IMG/VR virus record: IMGVR_UViG_3300041964_000082
Coordinates: 1-64,000 of that record
Length of the DNA: 64,000 nucleotides
Source of the DNA: a virus
Direction: 5' to 3' (one strand)
Positions 16,034 to 34,050 of this stretch are shown here, piece after piece (positions within the stretch are counted from its first letter, which is position 1; each line of letters opens with the position of its first letter). The notes under the pieces were generated by a model. That model saw only the letters and a program-made list of their open reading frames with translations, was not told the DNA's origin and did no database searches. Position numbers and translations under genes: made by a program.

Positions 16034-16315
16034 TTAGCTGTAGTGTCCTTCAACTTTTGATGAGATCAATTGGATTAAAGCAAGCTCTGAATCAGTAAAA
16101 GACTCTTCGCTGTCAAAGTATCGAGAGCTTAAATAATCGATACTTTCATTCTTAAGGATGACTCGCAAGTACTTAATCAATAGCTGTCTGTATATATCTC
16201 TTTCTGTCGCAAACTTCGGCTGATTAGACGCTGTGACAGGATCTTCATTCCATTGGGACACAACACGAGTAAGCAAAATTACTTCTTCTTCCGTCCAAGG
16301 ATTCGGGTTTAGCAT
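16034..16315 (-). CDS. AT-rich reverse-oriented moron, hypothetical
   Basis: 93-aa ORF convergent on the tail operon, lower GC. Confidence 0.55.
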   Translation of the reverse strand: MLNPNPWTEEEVILLTRVVSQWNEDPVTASNQPKFATERDIYRQLLIKYLRVILKNESIDYLSSRYFDSEESFTDSELALIQLISSKVEGHYS

Positions 16316-16383
16316 GTGGCGTCAGGTTCAAGTAGCCTCAGTCTAGCTAGCGGGAATGCTGCTATCAAGAATTCTGAGGCAGT

Positions 16384-17131
16384 ATGAGCGCAACCCCAAC
16401 CCTAACCGCCGCTTGCCCGATCGATCGCCTCAGCAATGTCGATCTGCTGTGGGTGCAACAGCAACTCCTAAGAGGCGGCTACCTCGATCGCCCCACAGAT
16501 GCAGACGGCTTGATCGGCAACCGCACTCGCACCGCCTTTGCTAATTTCAAGCGTGACGCCTCTTTGTCCGATCCTGAGCTAATTGGCGGCACGTCGATCA
16601 CACTAGTTGCAGCAGCTTGACGCGCCTCACAAGGTCAGTGAGCAACAGCAGGCGTTGGCGACCAAAGCCAATCCAATCGCAGGTACTCGATCGGGTAAGC
16701 GGGCAATTCTTCCAGTAGTCGGTGAAGTCTACGAAAACGATGGATCGCTGATGGCGCTTACCTGACCTGGGGTGAAATGCTGCGCGGCTTTAGCCGATGC
16801 CGATCGGGTCTGCCACTTTTGGGAGCGAGGAGCAGCTTGTAAAAAACATGCTGGCAACTGCGGCAGCATACCGATGATCCGGCAGAAGTTCGGCAGTCCG
16901 ATCGCCATCAACTCTGCCTACAGACCATACACCTTAGACATTGGAGCATCACGATCGCAGCACAAATATGGTCGCGCTTTGGACTTGCGCCCGCTCAATG
17001 GCGATTTTAAACGGTTGCTGGAAGTTGTCAAAAGTACCTCAGCCATCAAGGGGATCGGGCTAGCTCAGCCAAGCTTTTTGCACGTCGATATCAGGCCAGA
17101 AAAGAAGCGCACTATTTTTCGCTATGCGTAG
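16384..17131 (+). CDS. Endolysin: peptidoglycan-binding domain plus peptidase M15 (frameshifted)
   Basis: VQQQL...ADGLIGNRTRTAF PG-binding motif; INSAYR, SQHKYGRALD and FLHVD Zn-peptidase motifs. Confidence 0.85.
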
Positions 17132-17132
17132 G

Positions 17133-17300
17133 ATGACATTGCTCTGGCAGGACGGCGATCGAGTCCGCAACACCAATACCGACCAACTCGCGACAGTGCG
17201 ACTAGAGCTGGGATCGTCGCCTGTGTTGGCGCTTGATCAGGGTGGCGTAGTTTCAGGACGGCAGGAGATCTTGCAGTCGATGGGGTGGAAAAAGATATGA
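17133..17300 (+). CDS. Small hypothetical protein (55 aa), paralogue of the next ORF
   Basis: Manually translated MTLLWQDGDRVRNTNT...SGRQEILQSMGWKKI; ATGA overlap with 17297. Confidence 0.55.
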   Translation: MTLLWQDGDRVRNTNTDQLATVRLELGSSPVLALDQGGVVSGRQEILQSMGWKKI

Positions 17301-17467
17301 ACTGGCGTAAGGGCGATCACCTAAAAAACTCACAAACGGGTGACAAGGGCACGATCGCGCGGATCAACGGGCAAAGCGTTCATGTTCACCATCGAGATGC
17401 GCCGGGAATCTCGGTTGGGACGCAGGAACGATTAGAGCTGGCAGGGTGGGAGTTAGTGGAAGATTGA
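17297..17467 (+). CDS. Small hypothetical protein (56 aa)
   Basis: MNWRKGDHLKNSQT...VGTQERLELAGWELVED. Confidence 0.55.
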   Translation: MNWRKGDHLKNSQTGDKGTIARINGQSVHVHHRDAPGISVGTQERLELAGWELVED

Positions 17468-17515
17468 GCGGCGATCGGGTGCAAAGCAGGCAAACACACA
17501 GCAAAAGGGTTGAAA

Positions 17516-18004
17516 ATGAAAGCACTAAGCGATCGTCAGAATACAGCGGGCTTCACTTTGATCGAAGTTTTGATAACGATAATCATTATCGGTATCCTCA
17601 GCTCTCTCGCTTTGCCAGCGTACTTATCACAGGCTGCAAAAGCCAAACAGACAGAAGCGAAGGGGTATGTGAGTGCTGTCAATCGCGCTCAGCAAGCCTA
17701 CAGAATCGAAAAGTCTACATTTGCTGGGGAATGGACAGACCTAGAAATTGGCATTCCTGCCGAAACTCAAGACTATACCTACACTCTGAGCGCTGCGAGC
17801 GAAACCACAACAACGATCGCTGCCGAATCAGAAGCGCCTGAACTGCGCGACTACTCAGGCGGCGTGGTAGTCCTGCAAGACAGCGGGCAAACGTCCGTAG
17901 CCGCCTGTCAGACAACCAAAACAGGTGGGAGCGTGATTCTGCCGACGCTCGATCGATCGATTGGGGCAGGATGTGAGGGCAACGATGTGGAGATCATGCG
18001 GTAA
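17516..18004 (+). CDS. Type IV pilin (cyanobacterial pilin G/H-like family)
   Basis: Class III signal G|FTLIE, hydrophobic helix, QAAKAKQTEAK...VNRAQQAY motif, C-terminal Cys pair. Confidence 0.92.
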   Translation: MKALSDRQNTAGFTLIEVLITIIIIGILSSLALPAYLSQAAKAKQTEAKGYVSAVNRAQQAYRIEKSTFAGEWTDLEIGIPAETQDYTYTLSAASETTTTIAAESEAPELRDYSGGVVVLQDSGQTSVAACQTTKTGGSVILPTLDRSIGAGCEGNDVEIMR

Positions 18005-18216
18005 GCAATGGCTAACTTTTCTCCACGGCAAGGACATCCGATCGAAGTCTCCCGGCAACCGCTGTTTGTTCTGTCGATCGCGTGTCTGCGTCTCGCCTGG
18101 GTCGTATTGCGAAGATTGGCTAGCGTACATGATACGCGGCAACGAAGTGGGTATGGTTCACAATCGCTGCTTCTATGGCGGCGGCGAACCAAACAAAGAG
18201 AAGGCAAGGTAAACAG

Positions 18217-18579
18217 GTGGAACAACTGCTAGCCCATTTGTGCGGAGACTGGATGACCCAAAATAATTGGATTGCCCTGAACAAACGCACCTCTCCATCA
18301 TGGCTACCCGTCCTGGTACATGGCATGTTCTACGGTCTGTCATTTGTGGTCACAAGCCTTGCTTTTGATTCGCCCGAAATGCGATCGCTCATGCCTTTAG
18401 CCTTTATCGTCAGCACTCATATTCTGGTTGATCGATTCAATGTAGCCTCGCTATGGGTGAGAGCCTACAACTGGCAATGGGACGGCGATCGCCCCAACGT
18501 GCCTAACTTCGTCCTCTTGTGCTGCGACCAATCAATCCATTTGTGGCTAAATGCTATTGCTTTGCACTATCTTTCTTGA
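18217..18579 (+). CDS. DUF3307-like membrane protein
   Basis: AHLCGDW..Q, H...Y, THILVD and DQSIH conserved motifs. Confidence 0.8.
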   Translation: MEQLLAHLCGDWMTQNNWIALNKRTSPSWLPVLVHGMFYGLSFVVTSLAFDSPEMRSLMPLAFIVSTHILVDRFNVASLWVRAYNWQWDGDRPNVPNFVLLCCDQSIHLWLNAIALHYLS

Positions 18580-19230
18580 TTCGTCTATTTTCTCTCATCA
18601 AAGGAGTTGTCAATGCTTTTTCTATCGACCATCCACACTTAAAGCGCCTGCTGATAGTAGTAGGTCTAAAGCCCAGCCTTCTTTCCCACTCTCTTACACA
18701 AAGCGTCTCACCTTGAAAAGTTATCCATCGTGTCGTTCGTCTGTTTGCCGCTTGCTCTATCGGAGTAGCCCATCGACAGTTGTCTTTTGAGTAGCCACAA
18801 TTGTTGTCAATCCGATCAATCGAATGCTGTCTTGTTGGAGGTTCGCCCATATCCTCCAAAAACGCCTCGAAACTGTTGCGCATCGATCACAGACTGTAAT
18901 TCCTTTTGCCCCGTAATTTGCATAATTTGAGTCTTTGCAATCACAATGACACCGAGAAATCATTGCAGACCACGATCTAAAAGCGCCAGACAGATTATGT
19001 CCTCGCGTGTGTCCATGCGTGGAGAATCTTTCAGCAGCGGCAACTGCTGCAAGATCTTTCTTCAAACAACCACAAGATCTTGTGTGTCCTGTTGTAACCT
19101 TATGCTTGCTAAATTTCTTTTGTGTTCCGCAGTCACACAGGCATTCAAGTTGCGCTCTTCCGCCCAATATCTCTTTGACAACGGGTCAAACGACCAAACC
19201 GATCGCCCGGATCACTGTTATTCTTGTCAT
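18554..19230 (-). CDS. HNH endonuclease 1 (frameshifted)
   Basis: CLCDCG, SCGC, WSAMISRC, NYGAKGITVC, HSIDRIDNNCGYSKDNCRWAT..Q..N. Confidence 0.88.
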
Positions 19231-19313
19231 AGCCCTCTCGCAAGTCGTGTTGTGAAATGGGTCAGCCGTTGCCGAATGTTGGAAGCATTTTGCAGCGGCG
19301 TTTCTATTATTTT
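19225..19313 (+). ncRNA. Candidate cis-antisense RNA over the HNH1 start codon and leader
   Basis: Conserved with 20766-20853; hairpin with G-U pairs on the + strand followed by a U-rich tail. Confidence 0.5.
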
Positions 19314-19334
19314 AACAAATCTAAGAAATGCAGT

Positions 19335-19391
19335 CGATCAATCAATTCACCTGTGGCTGAATGCTCTTGCTTTGCACTACCTGATCATCTA
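19335..19391 (+). repeat. Orphan second copy of the DUF3307 3' end
   Basis: 41/48 nt identical to 18525-18572; encodes DQSIHLWLNALALHYL. Confidence 0.9.
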
Positions 19392-19404
19392 GGAGGCGAT
19401 CGCC

Positions 19405-19689
19405 ATGCCAGATACACCCCTTGAACGCCTCGCAGAATTAGAAGCCGCTGTAGCAAAGCTAGAGGTAAGCGATCGCCTGCAAGTGAAGCAAATTCGGCTG
19501 ATCCAAAAGCTCAACTCTGCTCTGTTTGGGTGCATAGCGATCGGGCTTCTGCTCAGCCAGCAAACCATCCAAAGCCCTGAAAATAGACAGATGTTAGAAC
19601 GCATTGCGATCGGCGTAATAGCAGCAGGTGCGTCTGGTTTAGGCTTAAGTGGGTTTCTGGAAACGAAAGAATCGGAGTCAACTGAATGA
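19405..19689 (+). CDS. Holin-like small membrane protein
   Basis: N-terminal coiled coil, two hydrophobic segments, charged tail, GGAGG RBS; lysis region. Confidence 0.45.
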   Translation: MPDTPLERLAELEAAVAKLEVSDRLQVKQIRLIQKLNSALFGCIAIGLLLSQQTIQSPENRQMLERIAIGVIAAGASGLGLSGFLETKESESTE

Positions 19690-19946
19690 CTTTCCACAAA
19701 TCCAGTAATTACGTCGAAATAACCTGCCCTGCTTGTGACGAGCAAGGAAATCGGCTTATTCCAGTTGAATCAGTTGCCTTCAGAGTTCATATCAGCATCG
19801 CGATCGACCCGAAAATGAGCCAGAGTCAAAAGACTTTCAGCCACTATTGCAAGAGTTTTATGAAAAGCTAAATCAACATTGCATAGAATTTAACGATCGA
19901 TACACCGCTTTAATCCAAGGTTAATTACCCAAGATCGATCGCCCTC

Positions 19947-20069
19947 ATGCCCGCAACCCAGCAACCCAGTGCCCGCGAACTCTTGAGAGCGATCGAGCAG
20001 AACGAATTGCGGCTCCACTATCAGCCGATCGTTTCTCTGCAAGCTCCAGCCTTGCCTGTGAGCGGCTAC
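19947..20069 (+). pseudogene. Orphaned EAL-domain N-terminus
   Basis: LLRAIEQNELRLHYQPIVSL...VSGY breaks off just before the EAL motif; the rest of the 302-aa ORF is the antisense shadow of HNH2. Confidence 0.8.
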
Positions 20070-20077
20070 AAATCAAT

Positions 20078-20771
20078 TTATCCGGCCTCTCTAGCTGCTT
20101 TACTGCCTTTAGCTGATACTCCCTTTCTGTTCATACTTGGTGTTGTAAAAGCTTGCTCTACACTCCATCCTCTCTTTAGCCGACTGGATAACAGTGACGC
20201 GGGCAAACACACTTTGTCGCTCCACTCCTGCAAGCACAAAGACTCACCTTTATATTCAACAATTGTGTTGTTAGATCTGTTTCTTTGTTGTTGCTTGCGC
20301 GTTGCCCATCGACAATTTTCTTTTGAATACCCTAAATCGTTGTTTCTACGATCGAGAGTATGTTTATTTGTCGAAGGCTCACCCATATCTCAAGAAAGCT
20401 TCAAAGCTTTTACGCCATCGATCGCAAACTGTAATGCCTCTGCCACCATAGTTCTCGTAATAAGTATTCTTTGGATTGTGGCAACGTTGAATCATGTTCG
20501 TCCAAATTCGGTACAGTCTTGTTTTACGTCCACATGGGGTATGACCATGCTTTGTTATACGCTGCCGAGTAACATCAGACTGAAGACACCCGCACGATTG
20601 AGTGTGTCCAGTACGCAGCGCTTGCAGCAGAACTTTGCGCTTTTTGCCGCAATCACAAAAACATTCAAAGACTCGATACGTTCTACCAGAAGAAATCCTA
20701 TGTCTGGCAACTTCCTGAACGATTGTCAGCCGACCAAATCGATCGCCCGGATTTACTGTTATTGTTGTCAT
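20078..20771 (-). CDS. HNH endonuclease 2 (frameshifted), paralogue of HNH1
   Basis: GDRFGRLT, CFCDCG, SCGC, NYGGRGITVCDRW, HTLDRRNNDLGYSKENCRWAT. Confidence 0.9.
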
Positions 20772-20853
20772 AGCCCTCTTGCAAGTCGTGTTGTTAGATG
20801 GGTTAGCCGTTGTGAGGTGTTGGAAGCACCCGCAGCGGCGTTTCTATTATTTT
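20766..20853 (+). ncRNA. Candidate cis-antisense RNA over the HNH2 start codon and leader
   Basis: Hairpin GCCGTTGTGAGGTGTTGGAAGCACCCGCAGCGGC plus T-rich tail; covaries with the copy at 19265-19299. Confidence 0.5.
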
Positions 20854-20911
20854 AGCTTAAATAATATTGATAGCTTGCTAATTACTTGTCGCTCAACAAA
20901 GCCTAATTATT

Positions 20912-21653
20912 GTGAACATACTAGACGCGCTAGAAAAAAAACAACTTCTGTTGTACTATCAACCAATTGTTGATCTGCAACAGCACAGCGCCCCAGTAGT
21001 GGGGTATGAAGCGCTTTTACGCTGTAAATGCCCCGATCGAGGTTTTCTACTTCCTAAAGACTTCCTACCCAGCATTACCCAAGCAAAAATAACTGATTTC
21101 AAGTGGCAAACGCCTTTATTTAACTGGGTATTCACTGAAGCATGTAGAACAGCAGACAACGCTTGAAGACGGGCTGTACTTGAGCGTAAACGTCGAACCT
21201 ATGCAGTTTCTTGAAGCTGGGTTTGTAGCACGAGTCAAGCAAACAATAGAACAGCTAAACCTTAAAGGCCGAATATGTTTTGAGATCACGGAACACTCGA
21301 TCGCGAGTCGTGATTTGCTAGTTCTACAGCAAGAACTTACATTATTAACAGAATCAGCAAAAGTTGCTCTAGATGATGTTTGGACAGGCAATGCTTCTTT
21401 GTGGAGAATTAGCGAACTGTATGGGTTGATTGACCTCTTAAAAATCGATCGCGTTTTCATGCCAAAAGACTCGTTTGATCGCAAGTCGATTGCTATCTTT
21501 AGGTGTTTCGTCACACTAGCTGACGCTCTGGACTTGCAGACAGTAGCAGAGGGGATTGAAACACAGCAACAGGTTGATTTCTGTCGATCGCTGGGCGTAC
21601 GCTTTGCTCAGGGGTTCTTTTTCGGGAAGGCGCAGGCAGAGTTGGCGCAATGA
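20912..21653 (+). CDS. EAL-domain c-di-GMP phosphodiesterase (one frameshift near 21165)
   Basis: YQPIV, EALLR, SVN, EITE, LDDVWTG, LKID, VAEGIE and QGFFF motifs. Confidence 0.9.
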
Positions 21654-21948
21654 GTTGCAAACCCTGCCAAGACTTTAAAAGTCGTGGGAGAGCATTAGAA
21701 TTAAGACATATCTTTACGGTGTTACCAATGGAAGATAACGAAGACTTTCAATTGTCATCTGAATTACGCAACTTTTGGCACTACCTGAAATACAATCCAG
21801 CGTCGTTGTTTGATTACTGGTTAAAACATATGAAGAGGCCATCTGAAGAATTTTGGATGATGCTCAACTGGAACAGCCCTAGTTTCTGAGACTAACTTCT
21901 TCGCTTTGTACACTTGTACTCCCACGAAGCGACGGCTAAAATGTAGGG

Positions 21949-22184
21949 GCGATCGATCAATCAGTGGCTTGCCGCGCCCTGACAGGATGGGCTTCTCTAA
22001 GGGCTAGAGCGTGAGTGTTCTACTGGGTGGGAGAGAGAAGACTGAGCGCTGATTATCTGAGGCTTGGCGATAGCATCAACAGAGCGAGATACTCTCAGGC
22101 GGCAACAGCGCAATCGATCGCAATATCTCACCTGCCATGTGTAGGCGGAGCAACGAAGGCGATACGGGTATCCGGTCGCCTTTT
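21949..22184 (+). ncRNA. Candidate structured ncRNA, about 235 nt
   Basis: TTGTAC-17-TAAAAT promoter (21914-21942), several internal stems, terminator 22156-22184, no convincing ORF. Confidence 0.5.
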
Positions 22185-22277
22185 GCATTGAAACTCTAGC
22201 CACTCGATCGCGTCACTGCATACGGTGTACCTTGCCATTTGCACGGTTAAACTGTATTAAGCTGCTGCCGTGCTGTC

Positions 22278-22925
22278 ATGAAATACGATCGCATCGCAAT
22301 CGACTTCTTGGATTGGCTACGGCAACTACTGTGGCACAGGGAAGATGTGATCAAGCACCGTCCCTACGATGTGCTACGAACGATGCGGGGAAAGTACGGG
22401 CTAATCAGCAAAGTCGATCGACGGACGCCACGCGCTATCTCGACTTACACATTTCTCCCTTTCCGCTACAACCAGCCAGAGCAAGAGCTGCGAGACATCC
22501 ACCTCTGCTGCGATCACCTGGGGGCAATTCAGGGCGAGAAATCGATCGCGCCTCGTGGTGGAGGCAATCAGCTAACGCACAGAATTTCAATCTATAGCGC
22601 CAGTCATTTCTTAGATGCGCACGGCTCCTACGACCTGAAAGAGCTGTTCTCCGGCGAGTACGATCTGCAAGGCCAAGACGCGCTACCACACAGACAGGCG
22701 TCATAGTTGTAGATAAAGTTGCTTACTATTTCAAAGAGCGCGACCCTAAGGCGTTCAACTGGGGGTTTGAAGTCCCGGCTACGGTAAAAGAGGTGATGTC
22801 AGGGACGTGGCGATCGCCCTCATCCGATCGGCAAGACTTCACCATCGAGGGCACGTTGATCGATGACGGGAAGCCACGGAAGGCACGAATCACAATTAAG
22901 GACGATCGCGATCGATCGAGGTAGG
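22278..22925 (+). CDS. Hypothetical protein (frameshifted near 22690)
   Basis: ORF 22278-22706 continues in another frame as YFKERDPKAFNWGFEVPATVKEV... Confidence 0.5.
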
Positions 22926-23188
22926 AGGCACGATGAAGCAGGCGACTCAGTAGAACTCGTGGAGATGCAGGAAGCTTTGGTAACTGCCAGTGAAGCAGCA
23001 CGATTGCGGTATGCCCTGCTACTTGCCCGCTGGTACTGCCACGAGCGCGATCGAGCATCAGAAGCAGAGTCCTTGGCGCACCAGTGGCAGATCTGCGCCT
23101 GCATCTGGGCGTCGGTGGGGATTCTTGCCTGTACTGCGGTTTTGGTGATGGTCGTGAGCGGTTGATAAAACAAGAGAGCGGCTTAACC

Positions 23189-23677
23189 ATGTCCAACGGA
23201 TTCACCCGTCAAGAGACAATGATTTTGACAGGTCTTACATCAAACCAACTGAGCTACCTCGATCGCACGGATTTAGTTACTCCTCGAAAAGAAGGACACC
23301 CAAGACACCCAAAAATCACGTACTCAGCAGAACAAATTTTAGAAATTCAACTTATAAAAAAACTGAGAGAGAAAGTTTCACCCAAAGAAGTCGAGTCAGC
23401 CTTAGATTATCTGAAATCCAAAGACTACGATCCTCCGCTTCTTAATGTCAGACTTTTGTCTTTCAATAAAAACTTGTATTGGATTAAAAATGAAGAAAAC
23501 TTGAAGAGCTTAATCATGGAATTAGTGGAAAAGAATAAAGGTGAAATCGTTATGCTTACAATTGAACCGATTGGTGACGTTATCTCTGAAATCTGGGAAG
23601 AGAGAAGAAAAAGCCGAGTGTTAGATTTTGAGAAACGAATCAAAGGAACTGCGCTAGAGGTAAAGCGATCGCCCTAA
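23189..23677 (+). CDS. MerR-family HTH regulator
   Basis: GFTRQET..LTGLTSNQLSYLDRTDLVTP...YSAEQILEI..IKKLR. Confidence 0.8.
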   Translation: MSNGFTRQETMILTGLTSNQLSYLDRTDLVTPRKEGHPRHPKITYSAEQILEIQLIKKLREKVSPKEVESALDYLKSKDYDPPLLNVRLLSFNKNLYWIKNEENLKSLIMELVEKNKGEIVMLTIEPIGDVISEIWEERRKSRVLDFEKRIKGTALEVKRSP

Positions 23678-24213
23678 AACAAGGAAAGCTGCCCCTCAGC
23701 AACAGACTTCGATCGCTTACCCTTGCGCCTGTCCTGAGGTGGGGTGGAAGGCTGGGAAGTGGATCGATCGCAGCTCAGAGCGAAGATTTCGGCTTCGATC
23801 GGGTCATACCATGCGGGCGGCTCTCCATTCTCATCATTCACCCCAGCATAGATTCCAAAAAGGTCGGCTCTCATGCCGCTGATGAGCTTTGCCGCTTGGT
23901 CGGCATCGCCAGAAACCTCGATCGCATTTAGCAGCATCCTCTGCCAGATAATGCCACCCTGTCTTTGGTACTGAAGAAATTTGTCGGCATCCATTGGCAC
24001 GTTTTTGTGACACTGCCTGCACAGCGATACCAGATTCGATAGGTCATCTGCTCCACCCTGTTCTATCCAGTGGATGTGATGCGCCTCAACGTGGTCATAG
24101 ACAAAACCGCAGCATTGACAGATATTTCGATCGCGCTTTTTCACCTGATTCGGCAAGGTGTAGCTGCGCTTCGATCGTTCTTCTTTGGGGGCGATAGATA
24201 GCTTTTTGGGCAT
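23674..24213 (-). CDS. HNH endonuclease (zinc-binding CxxC type)
   Basis: RDRNICQCCG, EAHHI..GG.DDLSNLVSLCRQCH. Confidence 0.85.
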   Translation of the reverse strand: MPKKLSIAPKEERSKRSYTLPNQVKKRDRNICQCCGFVYDHVEAHHIHWIEQGGADDLSNLVSLCRQCHKNVPMDADKFLQYQRQGGIIWQRMLLNAIEVSGDADQAAKLISGMRADLFGIYAGVNDENGEPPAWYDPIEAEIFALSCDRSTSQPSTPPQDRRKGKRSKSVAEGQLSLF

Positions 24214-33437: not shown

Positions 33438-34050
33438 CTAGGCGACCTCCTGTACTTGCTCGATCGAGTTCAGCCGACCGATTGGGCCCGTCTTCTGCAA
33501 AACTTCCCAGTTGTATCGGACGATCGCTTCTTCCAGCGTCTTGAACGACCCCAGCCGCTTCGTCTCACCGTTGGCTCGAAACTTGGCGACGTAAAATTCG
33601 CCCTCTTTCGAGATGCCCTTGTGCGCGATCGCTTCCCTCTGCGCGGCGGATGGTTCTGCACGTTCTCCGCATGGGTCACAACTCTGAGATTGCAGATCCA
33701 TCGGTTATCCAGCGTGTCGCCATTGCCATGATCGATCTGCTTGCCGCGTGTGCTAACGCCGTGCAGTTGAGCGATCTCTTCGTGCAGTCTGGGCGCTGTG
33801 TGGCGATCGACTCTGCGGCGGGCGTAGACAAGCTGTGATTTGTCTGGGCGCGTCCGGTTCACATCTGCGTAGTATTTCCGCCCTGCAGCTTGAGCGCGTC
33901 CTCTTGATGCACGATCGCCTCCAGTCCTTTCGACAGCGGCAGGCGGGCGATCGGGCGACCGCAGGTGCAGTATTCGGTTTTCTGGGCATTAGAGCGATCG
34001 ATTGTACCAACCGAATTTGGTACAGTTCTGTGTAAAGTTTGCATGACCAT
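33438..34050 (-). CDS. HNH-AP2 endonuclease (frameshifted)
   Basis: IDHGNGDTLDN..NLRVVTHAEN followed by AP2-like KGIS...YVAKFRANGETKRLGSFKTLEEA..YN. Confidence 0.8.

Follow-up and report, generated by a model that had tools for sequence, protein, structure and literature searches.

The first 64 kb of the 94.7-kb IMG/VR virus record IMGVR_UViG_3300041964_000082 (completeness estimate 94%; these 64,000 nucleotides (nt) are hereafter the window) carry two paralogous cassettes, each made up of a reverse-oriented HNH-type endonuclease gene and a short leader, and each interrupting a protein-coding gene, DUF3307 in one case and an EAL-domain gene in the other. The cassettes are probably two diverged and frameshifted free-standing homing endonuclease genes (HEGs) that border gene-conversion tracts, the stubs of resident genes beside them being the scars. 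This reading is carried by the layout of the two loci, a pre-invasion allele in a related contig, the foreign composition of the incoming DNA, the synonymous recoding of a duplicated gene end, and the spread of the endonuclease family. Features of the region, in window coordinates, are listed below.

18175..18579, + strand: DUF3307 gene, working copy, 134 amino acids (Pfam PF11750, E 3.5e-9; PHROG 6676/2470)
18525..18579, + strand: copy A, C-terminal end DQSIHLWLNAIALHYLS* fused to the DUF3307 body (repeat and composition comparison)
18554..19230, - strand: HNH-1, putative homing endonuclease gene, broken (PHROG 374/3377 'HNH endonuclease'; DNA and protein alignments)
19231..19314, both strands: leader 1 (sequence comparison and RNA folding)
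19335..19392, + strand: copy B, orphan DUF3307 C-terminal stub DQSIHLWLNALALHYLII* (repeat comparison, alignment with the related contig L085)
19947..20069, + strand: EAL orphan, the first 41 codons of the resident gene (comparison with L085)
20070..22189, no strand: foreign block comprising HNH-2, leader 2, EAL' and about 540 nt more (composition, HIP1 sites, homology to the related contigs L085 and L086)
20078..20771, - strand: HNH-2, putative homing endonuclease gene, broken (PHROG 374/3377; DNA and protein alignments)
20772..20854, both strands: leader 2 (same elements as leader 1)
20912..21653, + strand: EAL', xenologous EAL-domain gene (Pfam PF00563 on both pieces)

Layout of the two cassettes

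Spaced by 1,540-1,541 nt, the two HNH genes are the only copies in the whole 94.7-kb record, match PHROG 374/3377 'HNH endonuclease' at E values of 1e-21 to 1e-39, and lie on the strand opposite the genes they interrupt. The pair of paralogous, reverse-oriented HNH cassettes about 1.5 kb apart that was described in the initial annotation is therefore real. Similarity between the cassettes spans from ~(C/A)AATCAAT on the left to an invariant 23-mer on the right.

The state of the EAL locus before invasion was found in L085, a mosaic relative contig identified through orf94 (97% identical), in which this locus holds an uninterrupted 259-amino-acid EAL gene and lacks an HNH gene; a third allele, in L086, is likewise uninterrupted. 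The orphan shares 90% DNA identity and 38 of 41 residues with the start of the L085 gene, and homology stops exactly past the Tyr41 codon, where the orphan ends (...VSGY) directly ahead of the Glu codon of the EAL/EGL motif. The stop codon of HNH-2 follows 8 nt past this end. The displaced N-terminus is encoded a second time in EAL' (19947-20069 versus 20912-21034, E 1e-8 in the flank test described below). EAL' is 46-54% identical to the L085 EAL protein over its whole length, and DNA homology to L085 and L086 returns at 22190. GC content within 20070-22189 is 44-47% (45% in EAL'), versus 59% in the orphan and 51% in the window. The HIP1 palindrome GCGATCGC, present at 77 sites in the window versus 2.25 expected (~1.2 per kb), is absent from a 3.3-kb stretch (19477-22809) that coincides with this low-GC block. 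Given that EAL' is diverged throughout, that homology is regained only at 22190, and that the block is low in GC and free of HIP1, the resident EAL gene appears to have been cut after codon 41 and the DNA to its right replaced by a 2.1-kb foreign block, not by a short N-terminal patch. At this site the proposal that the cassette replaces just the displaced end thus fails, the entire EAL gene plus ~0.5 kb being foreign. EAL' is itself frameshifted near 21156-21180, with Pfam EAL positions 4-73 and 88-235 in different frames. A 302-amino-acid + strand open reading frame (ORF) at 19947-20855, in which the orphan EAL start reads on into HNH-2 antisense, was rejected as a gene and has no counterpart at cassette 1.

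At the DUF3307 locus it is the C-terminus that is duplicated (18525-18572 versus 19335-19382, 85% DNA identity), and the break adjoins the codons of the DQxxH motif. Insertion within a coding sequence at a conserved motif and a second copy of the displaced terminus, both proposed in the initial annotation, were thus recovered at both sites. Copies A and B differ at eight bases across 16 shared codons, seven of them synonymous and one causing an Ile to Leu change; a binomial estimate for this excess is ~1e-3, assuming that ~28% of random changes are synonymous. Because the differences are mostly synonymous, the copies appear to have diverged as working genes in different genomes, and a target-site duplication was rejected on the same grounds. 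Copy A has a GC content of 38%, versus 51% for the DUF3307 gene body, and overlaps the last eight HNH-1 codons on the other strand; this overlap, together with an AT-rich composition like that of the cassette, assigns it to the cassette. Copy B starts 20 nt beyond leader 1, its stop codon lies within the orf94 ribosome-binding region, and L085 homology picks up at 19390. This continuity of the stop codon with DNA also present in L085 assigns copy B to the resident DNA.

To the left of cassette 1, DNA homology to L085 and L086 ends at 18201-18204, in the first codons of the DUF3307 ORF. As the homology of the relatives is already lost at this point, the whole DUF3307 gene may also have been imported. 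The gene body contains two HIP1 sites at 51% GC, and a compact patch model is possible for this cassette. The first ~9 codons of the ORF (MAAANQTK..., 18175-18204) align with the start of an unrelated 119-amino-acid ORF of L085 (MAATQQQS..., L085:3886-3911), and the DUF3307 ORF start therefore seems to be chimeric, at a mosaic junction.

As stated in the initial annotation, other classes of mobile element left no trace. The ORF list, Pfam, and PHROG revealed no transposase ORF near the cassettes, and a repeat search found no terminal inverted repeats flanking either one. Scanning 17000-23000 against Rfam (E<=1) returned no intron core, only a chance long noncoding RNA match, and a tRNA scan was negative. 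A group I or II intron or an intein was rejected given the lack of an Rfam ribozyme match and the reading frames on opposite strands; an insertion sequence or transposon was rejected given the lack of a transposase or flanking inverted repeats and duplicated ends that differ mainly at synonymous sites.

The HNH-type family and its leader

Matches of the HNH proteins to PHROG 374, 3377 and 2081, all 'HNH endonuclease', reach down to E 1.5e-39. The family alignment (A3) begins with an RFGRLTV strand followed by a zinc ribbon (CxCxCG...GHTQSCGC), continues through a conserved RC-NP...YGGRGI-VC-W region into an HNH-like motif with conserved Asn positions (S/T-I/L-D-R-I-D-x-N-G-x-Y...N-C-R-W...Q..N), and ends in a helix-turn-helix-like GW..E.A..TP. 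For an AlphaFold2 model of the homologue L019 (pLDDT 93), the top VIA-align match was PacI (3m7k), an HNH restriction enzyme, over residues 70-159. Foldseek of the same model against the PDB returned nothing at E<=0.001, and a PDB sequence search with the HNH protein gave chance matches only. The protein is best explained as a zinc ribbon, an HNH-like domain, and a C-terminal helix-turn-helix, as judged from alignment and modelling.

Relatives are numerous, with 374 confirmed in IMG/VR and 7,193 proteins at E<=1e-20. They occur in 1,206 GenBank phage records, annotated as 'HNH endonuclease', 'homing endonuclease' or hypothetical, and at 63 loci in bacterial genomes of many phyla. The HNH-type family is a widespread, variable phage gene. 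Between its endolysin and pilin genes, L085 has a 414-amino-acid family member with three zinc-ribbon repeats (L085:1985-3229) and no duplicated gene ends, where the window has 67 nt only (17467-17534). The gene is therefore polymorphic for presence and absence among relatives at two places, the EAL locus and the endolysin-pilin gap, as befits a free-standing HEG.

The recurrence of the scar was surveyed by direct peptide duplication between the two flanks of each family member, a test that recovers both window cassettes. It was used in place of an earlier, less strict one (blastp-short, E 1e-3) that proved too noisy (31 of 77 loci versus 14 of 77 shuffled pairs). Only three of 134 homologous loci carried flank duplications (L037, L132 and L125), and L125 is doubtful. 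At L037, a reverse-oriented HNH gene is located between a 418-amino-acid gene and a 46-residue copy of the C-terminus of that gene, while at L132 the flank holds an N-terminal copy of an RNA-ligase-like gene. The L132 nuclease (L132:2554-5105) sits between a 22-residue orphan N-terminus and the full 474-amino-acid RNA-ligase-like gene, all on one strand, and combines the N-terminal zinc-ribbon modules of the family with a different C-terminal domain (...EYDGIQHF...). The scar thus appears to recur sporadically, as expected for a by-product of homing, and not as a family trait. This survey had been proposed in the initial annotation, and its outcome, with most homologues lacking duplicated gene ends, speaks against the family of self-repairing cassettes put forward there.

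Each HNH gene is preceded by a leader of 83-84 nt. The two are 85% identical, with the invariant 23-mer at the outer end, beyond which similarity stops abruptly. Their differences all fall mid-stem and preserve pairing (A-U replaced by G-C twice, plus a shifted bulge), a covariation that rests on two sequences, too few for a statistical test. The leader of about 83 nt with a covarying hairpin was therefore confirmed in length, identity and compensated pairing, with the correction that the hairpin is far stabler on the + strand. There the leaders fold at -31.8 and -37.3 kcal/mol (z -3.0 and -4.7), versus -22.8 and -20.4 kcal/mol (z about -2) on the HNH-sense - strand, on which three G-U pairs per copy in the 15-16 base-pair stem become A-C mismatches. 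On the + strand, the 15-base-pair hairpin of leader 1 (19265-19299) and the hairpin of leader 2 (20806-20839) are followed by U-rich tails (19300-19314 and 20840-20854). As the + strand stem runs directly into GUUUCUAUUAUUUUA, hairpin and tail resemble an intrinsic terminator that would end antisense transcription through the HNH gene; a - strand terminator was rejected, since that strand has no U-tail and carries the mismatches. A conserved structured element antisense to the HNH 5' end, as annotated initially, is present in both leaders.

The - strand of leader 1 has a TAAAAT -10 box (19314-19309) and a GAGGG ribosome-binding site covered by a small hairpin; such hairpins are known for T4 mobE, segB, and I-TevI (PMC2988022). 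An extended -10-like motif, TGnTATTnT, is conserved within the first HNH codons of both cassettes (19216-19224 and 20757-20765). It is conceivable, though rather doubtful, that the leader encodes an ~80-nt cis-antisense small RNA controlling the HEG, starting from TGnTATTnT and ending at the + strand hairpin and U-tail; the proposed RNA would be fully complementary to the HNH 5' untranslated region, ribosome-binding site, and start codon. The working analogy is IS10, whose antisense RNA-OUT represses its transposase. There, too, the first codons of RNA-IN hold an outward-facing promoter-like motif, and a stable stem-loop RNA is directed against the ribosome-binding site and start codon, the element lying at the extreme end of the mobile unit. 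The mobile unit here would be a HEG and not a transposon, and the + strand RNA is a prediction. If this proposal were true, the RNA would repress the endonuclease in genomes already holding the cassette, much as RNA-OUT does, and the window would contain an antisense-RNA-controlled homing endonuclease cassette, of which we know no published description. Among the elements described here, only the strand-asymmetric hairpin, terminator-like and located 5' in each cassette, lacks a clear precedent.

These leaders bear on the stronger reading of the initial annotation, a dedicated and undescribed family that would combine an HNH gene, antisense-RNA control, and a short replacement end, with gene repair as its selected, defining property. 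Cassette 1 fits such a compact patch, with the 18 codons of copy A, the HNH 3' overlap, and synonymous recoding. Also in keeping with it are the extent of similarity between the cassettes, from ~(C/A)AATCAAT to the 23-mer, and a compensated leader hairpin with a + strand U-tail and a TGnTATTnT placed to start the antisense RNA. Such a family is nevertheless quite unlikely. At cassette 2 a whole EAL gene and ~0.5 kb more are foreign, with no short patch; flank duplications are rare; an exact search of IMG/VR for the leader 23-mer found no match elsewhere; and an antisense terminator-like hairpin upstream of the HNH gene occurs at two of 34 intact homologous loci, no more often than on the sense strand. 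The principle has, moreover, already been published for fungal mORFs (PMC3630166) and for WHO elements (PMC7282813). What stands, in outline, is the reading as homing cassettes whose target gene stays whole; the claims of an undescribed system and of a family property do not.

Probable homing and its alternatives

The preferred reading, homing by free-standing HEGs, would place each HEG at the exact non-homologous edge of an imported stretch of DNA. Block 1 (~18202-19334) would comprise the DUF3307 gene, the convergent HNH-1, and its leader, and block 2 (20070-22189) HNH-2, its leader, the divergent complete EAL gene, and ~0.5 kb more. In the donor, the free-standing HEG would adjoin a homologue of the gene it cuts. 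During mixed infection the endonuclease would cut the resident DUF3307 or EAL gene at the conserved-motif codons. One broken end would be resected as far as donor homology and would then copy the cleavage-resistant gene copy of the donor along with the HEG, whereas the other would be joined without homology at the cut, leaving the orphan stubs at 19335-19392 and 19947-20069. Host gene function would survive, with a complete or recoded copy travelling alongside the HEG. The - strand of the leader would supply the HEG with its own -10 box and ribosome-binding site, while the strong hairpin and U-tail of the + strand should stop transcripts running antisense through it.

Alignment of the cassettes with each other and with 32 intact homologues located the lesions in the HNH genes. 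HNH-1 has lost 1 nt near 19213, 20 nt in a second deletion, and 1 nt between CDR and W near 18885; HNH-2 has a 2-nt deletion between FL and DMG near 20383. In homologues the two HNH halves share a single frame, and P0002, an intact relative of 231 amino acids that is 73% identical to HNH-2, has no shift at either lesion site. Programmed frameshifting was rejected, as the lesions differ in site and direction, so that the copies would need opposite shifts at different sites, and intact homologues including P0002 are unshifted. With both endonuclease genes broken as assembled, the present-day mobility of the cassettes is doubtful.

Several points weigh against the homing reading. The assembled reading frame is broken in each HNH gene, and the sites differ. 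Pfam HNH models match neither the HNH pieces nor the intact homologues, even at E<=5. A nearly invariant Arg occupies the position at which the first catalytic His of the HNH_3 consensus is expected. The similarity of the L019 model to PacI is middling (Z 6.5, root-mean-square deviation 2.7 A, 76 residues). The label 'HNH-type' derives from PHROG and GenBank annotations, and nuclease activity is assumed. The donor arrangement, an HNH gene beside the imported gene, was not observed, and cleavage specificity, repair route, and expression are inferred. For cassette 1, searches by orf94 in metagenome contigs and by the DUF3307 protein in IMG/VR recovered no relative; a back-translated DQSIHLWLNA pattern likewise had no match in IMG/VR or metagenome contigs. 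Because no empty-site relative was found, which copy is native was inferred from composition and contiguity. Finally, four 1-nt indels outside homopolymer runs divide the endolysin gene (16384-17131; peptidoglycan-binding domain and M15-type peptidase) into three ORFs, its L085 counterpart being an intact 248 amino acids, and given the frameshifts in the HNH, endolysin, and EAL genes the record is either a decaying element or an error-prone assembly.

Passive mosaicism, in which ordinary illegitimate phage recombination would have swapped modules with the HNH genes as mere passengers, would account for the broken HNH genes and for the mosaicism of the three related contigs throughout this region, where junctions coincide with gene boundaries, and it makes no call on the assumed nuclease activity. 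We regard it as unlikely, since the stub junctions abut the cassettes (the HNH-2 stop is 8 nt away at one, the outer edge of leader 1 20 nt away at the other), both fall inside the homologue of a co-imported gene beside conserved-motif codons, and the same geometry is seen at L037 and L132. HEGs are, in addition, known markers of exchange boundaries, as in ICP1 phages (PMC10448857).

The several unexpected frameshifts in a metagenome-derived record could also suggest that two strain variants were concatenated during assembly, giving false duplications as well as the frameshifts. Such an artefact is highly improbable, as the copies are diverged (85% DNA identity; ~44% protein identity) and not collapsed repeats, the joined sequences are dissimilar at the junctions and so offer no shared words at which a graph assembler could switch, and the independent contig L037 has the same architecture.

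Precedents, genomic setting, and significance

No published description of a gene-end-replacing HEG layout in phages was found, whereas fungal mitochondria and yeast offer known examples of the principle; the system is in that respect not undescribed, contrary to the initial annotation. In fungal mORFs the native C-terminus has given way to an inserted foreign one and is stranded downstream, where it matches close relatives, and the differences are often synonymous (PMC3630166, PMC6279837). Such gene hybrids include Allomyces macrogynus atp6, Glomus atp6, atp9, cox2, and nad3, and Endoconidiophora atp6 and cob (PMC3630166, PMC6279837). The cassettes resemble mORFs in that an endonuclease gene lies inside the end of a host gene that a foreign or recoded terminus keeps whole, in that the native terminus, left on the far side of the endonuclease gene, matches that of relatives (at cassette 2, through L085), and in the largely synonymous copy differences of cassette 1. 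Unlike mORFs, the cassettes belong to a phage and encode an enzyme that is HNH-like and not LAGLIDADG or GIY-YIG, the endonuclease gene runs opposite to the host gene and is never fused in frame with it, and in one case the N-terminus is displaced and a whole xenologous gene imported. Measured against mORFs and WHO elements together, the working end is foreign or recoded relative to the stranded end at both cassettes, whereas cassette 2 carries the whole of EAL' and ~540 nt of further foreign DNA rather than a replacement terminus only.

At yeast FBA1, WHO elements home without splicing, and each integration substitutes a new 3' end for that of the gene (Coughlan et al. 2020, PMC7282813). They resemble the cassettes, as interpreted here, in splice-free homing that leaves earlier ends behind, with allele-specific cleavage. 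They differ in having intein-like, HO-related proteins, in forming single-locus arrays in a eukaryotic nucleus, and in an activity shown by experiment (PMC7282813). Among phages, the T4 td intron provides one-sided homing with illegitimate joining and long resection (Parker et al. 1999, as summarized in the review PMC2988022). The seg and mob HEGs of T-even phages (intronless homing, marker exclusion) likewise stand free beside their target gene with co-conversion of flanking donor DNA, give non-homologous junctions if one flank is homologous, and have an RNA hairpin over the HEG ribosome-binding site (PMC2988022). They are, in contrast to the cassettes, usually co-oriented and intergenic, without retained stubs, and no antisense-strand 5' terminator is described for them.

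HIP1 is a cyanobacterial palindrome, and its excess in the window makes a cyanobacterium very probable as host, and the element is best explained as a HIP1-rich phage or prophage of cyanobacterial type. A cultured phage resembling the region was not found, and blastn of 16300-24200 against GenBank phages gave only a short HNH match in Rhizobium phages. All genes around the cassettes (endolysin, two small ORFs, pilin, DUF3307, orf94, orf61, and the EAL-domain gene) are on the + strand. The phage-borne type IV pilin gene (17510-18004; Pilin_GH and N_methyl domains), near the DUF3307 and EAL genes, is kept in L085 and L086, and together with these neighbours may form a host-lifestyle module. The two adjacent small ORFs (17124-17467; 58 and 60 amino acids) look like tandem paralogues, both with ...GD.v.N..T...gt..r... 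and ending in GW. Further, unrelated HNH-type genes are found at 23674-24213 (PHROG 7785/589), ~90% conserved in L085 and L086, and at 33470-33862 (PHROG 99/4578).

Set beside L085, the window offers a before-and-after view of how a phage HEG can enter a coding sequence with neither intron nor intein. An imported copy maintains the function of the host gene, and what remains of the resident end is a scar that can be dated. The probable cleavage sites marked by such scars adjoin, in this record, the DQxxH motif and the catalytic EAL motif. Scars of this kind also delimit laterally transferred DNA, and are useful for the study of phage mosaicism and the correction of gene calls.

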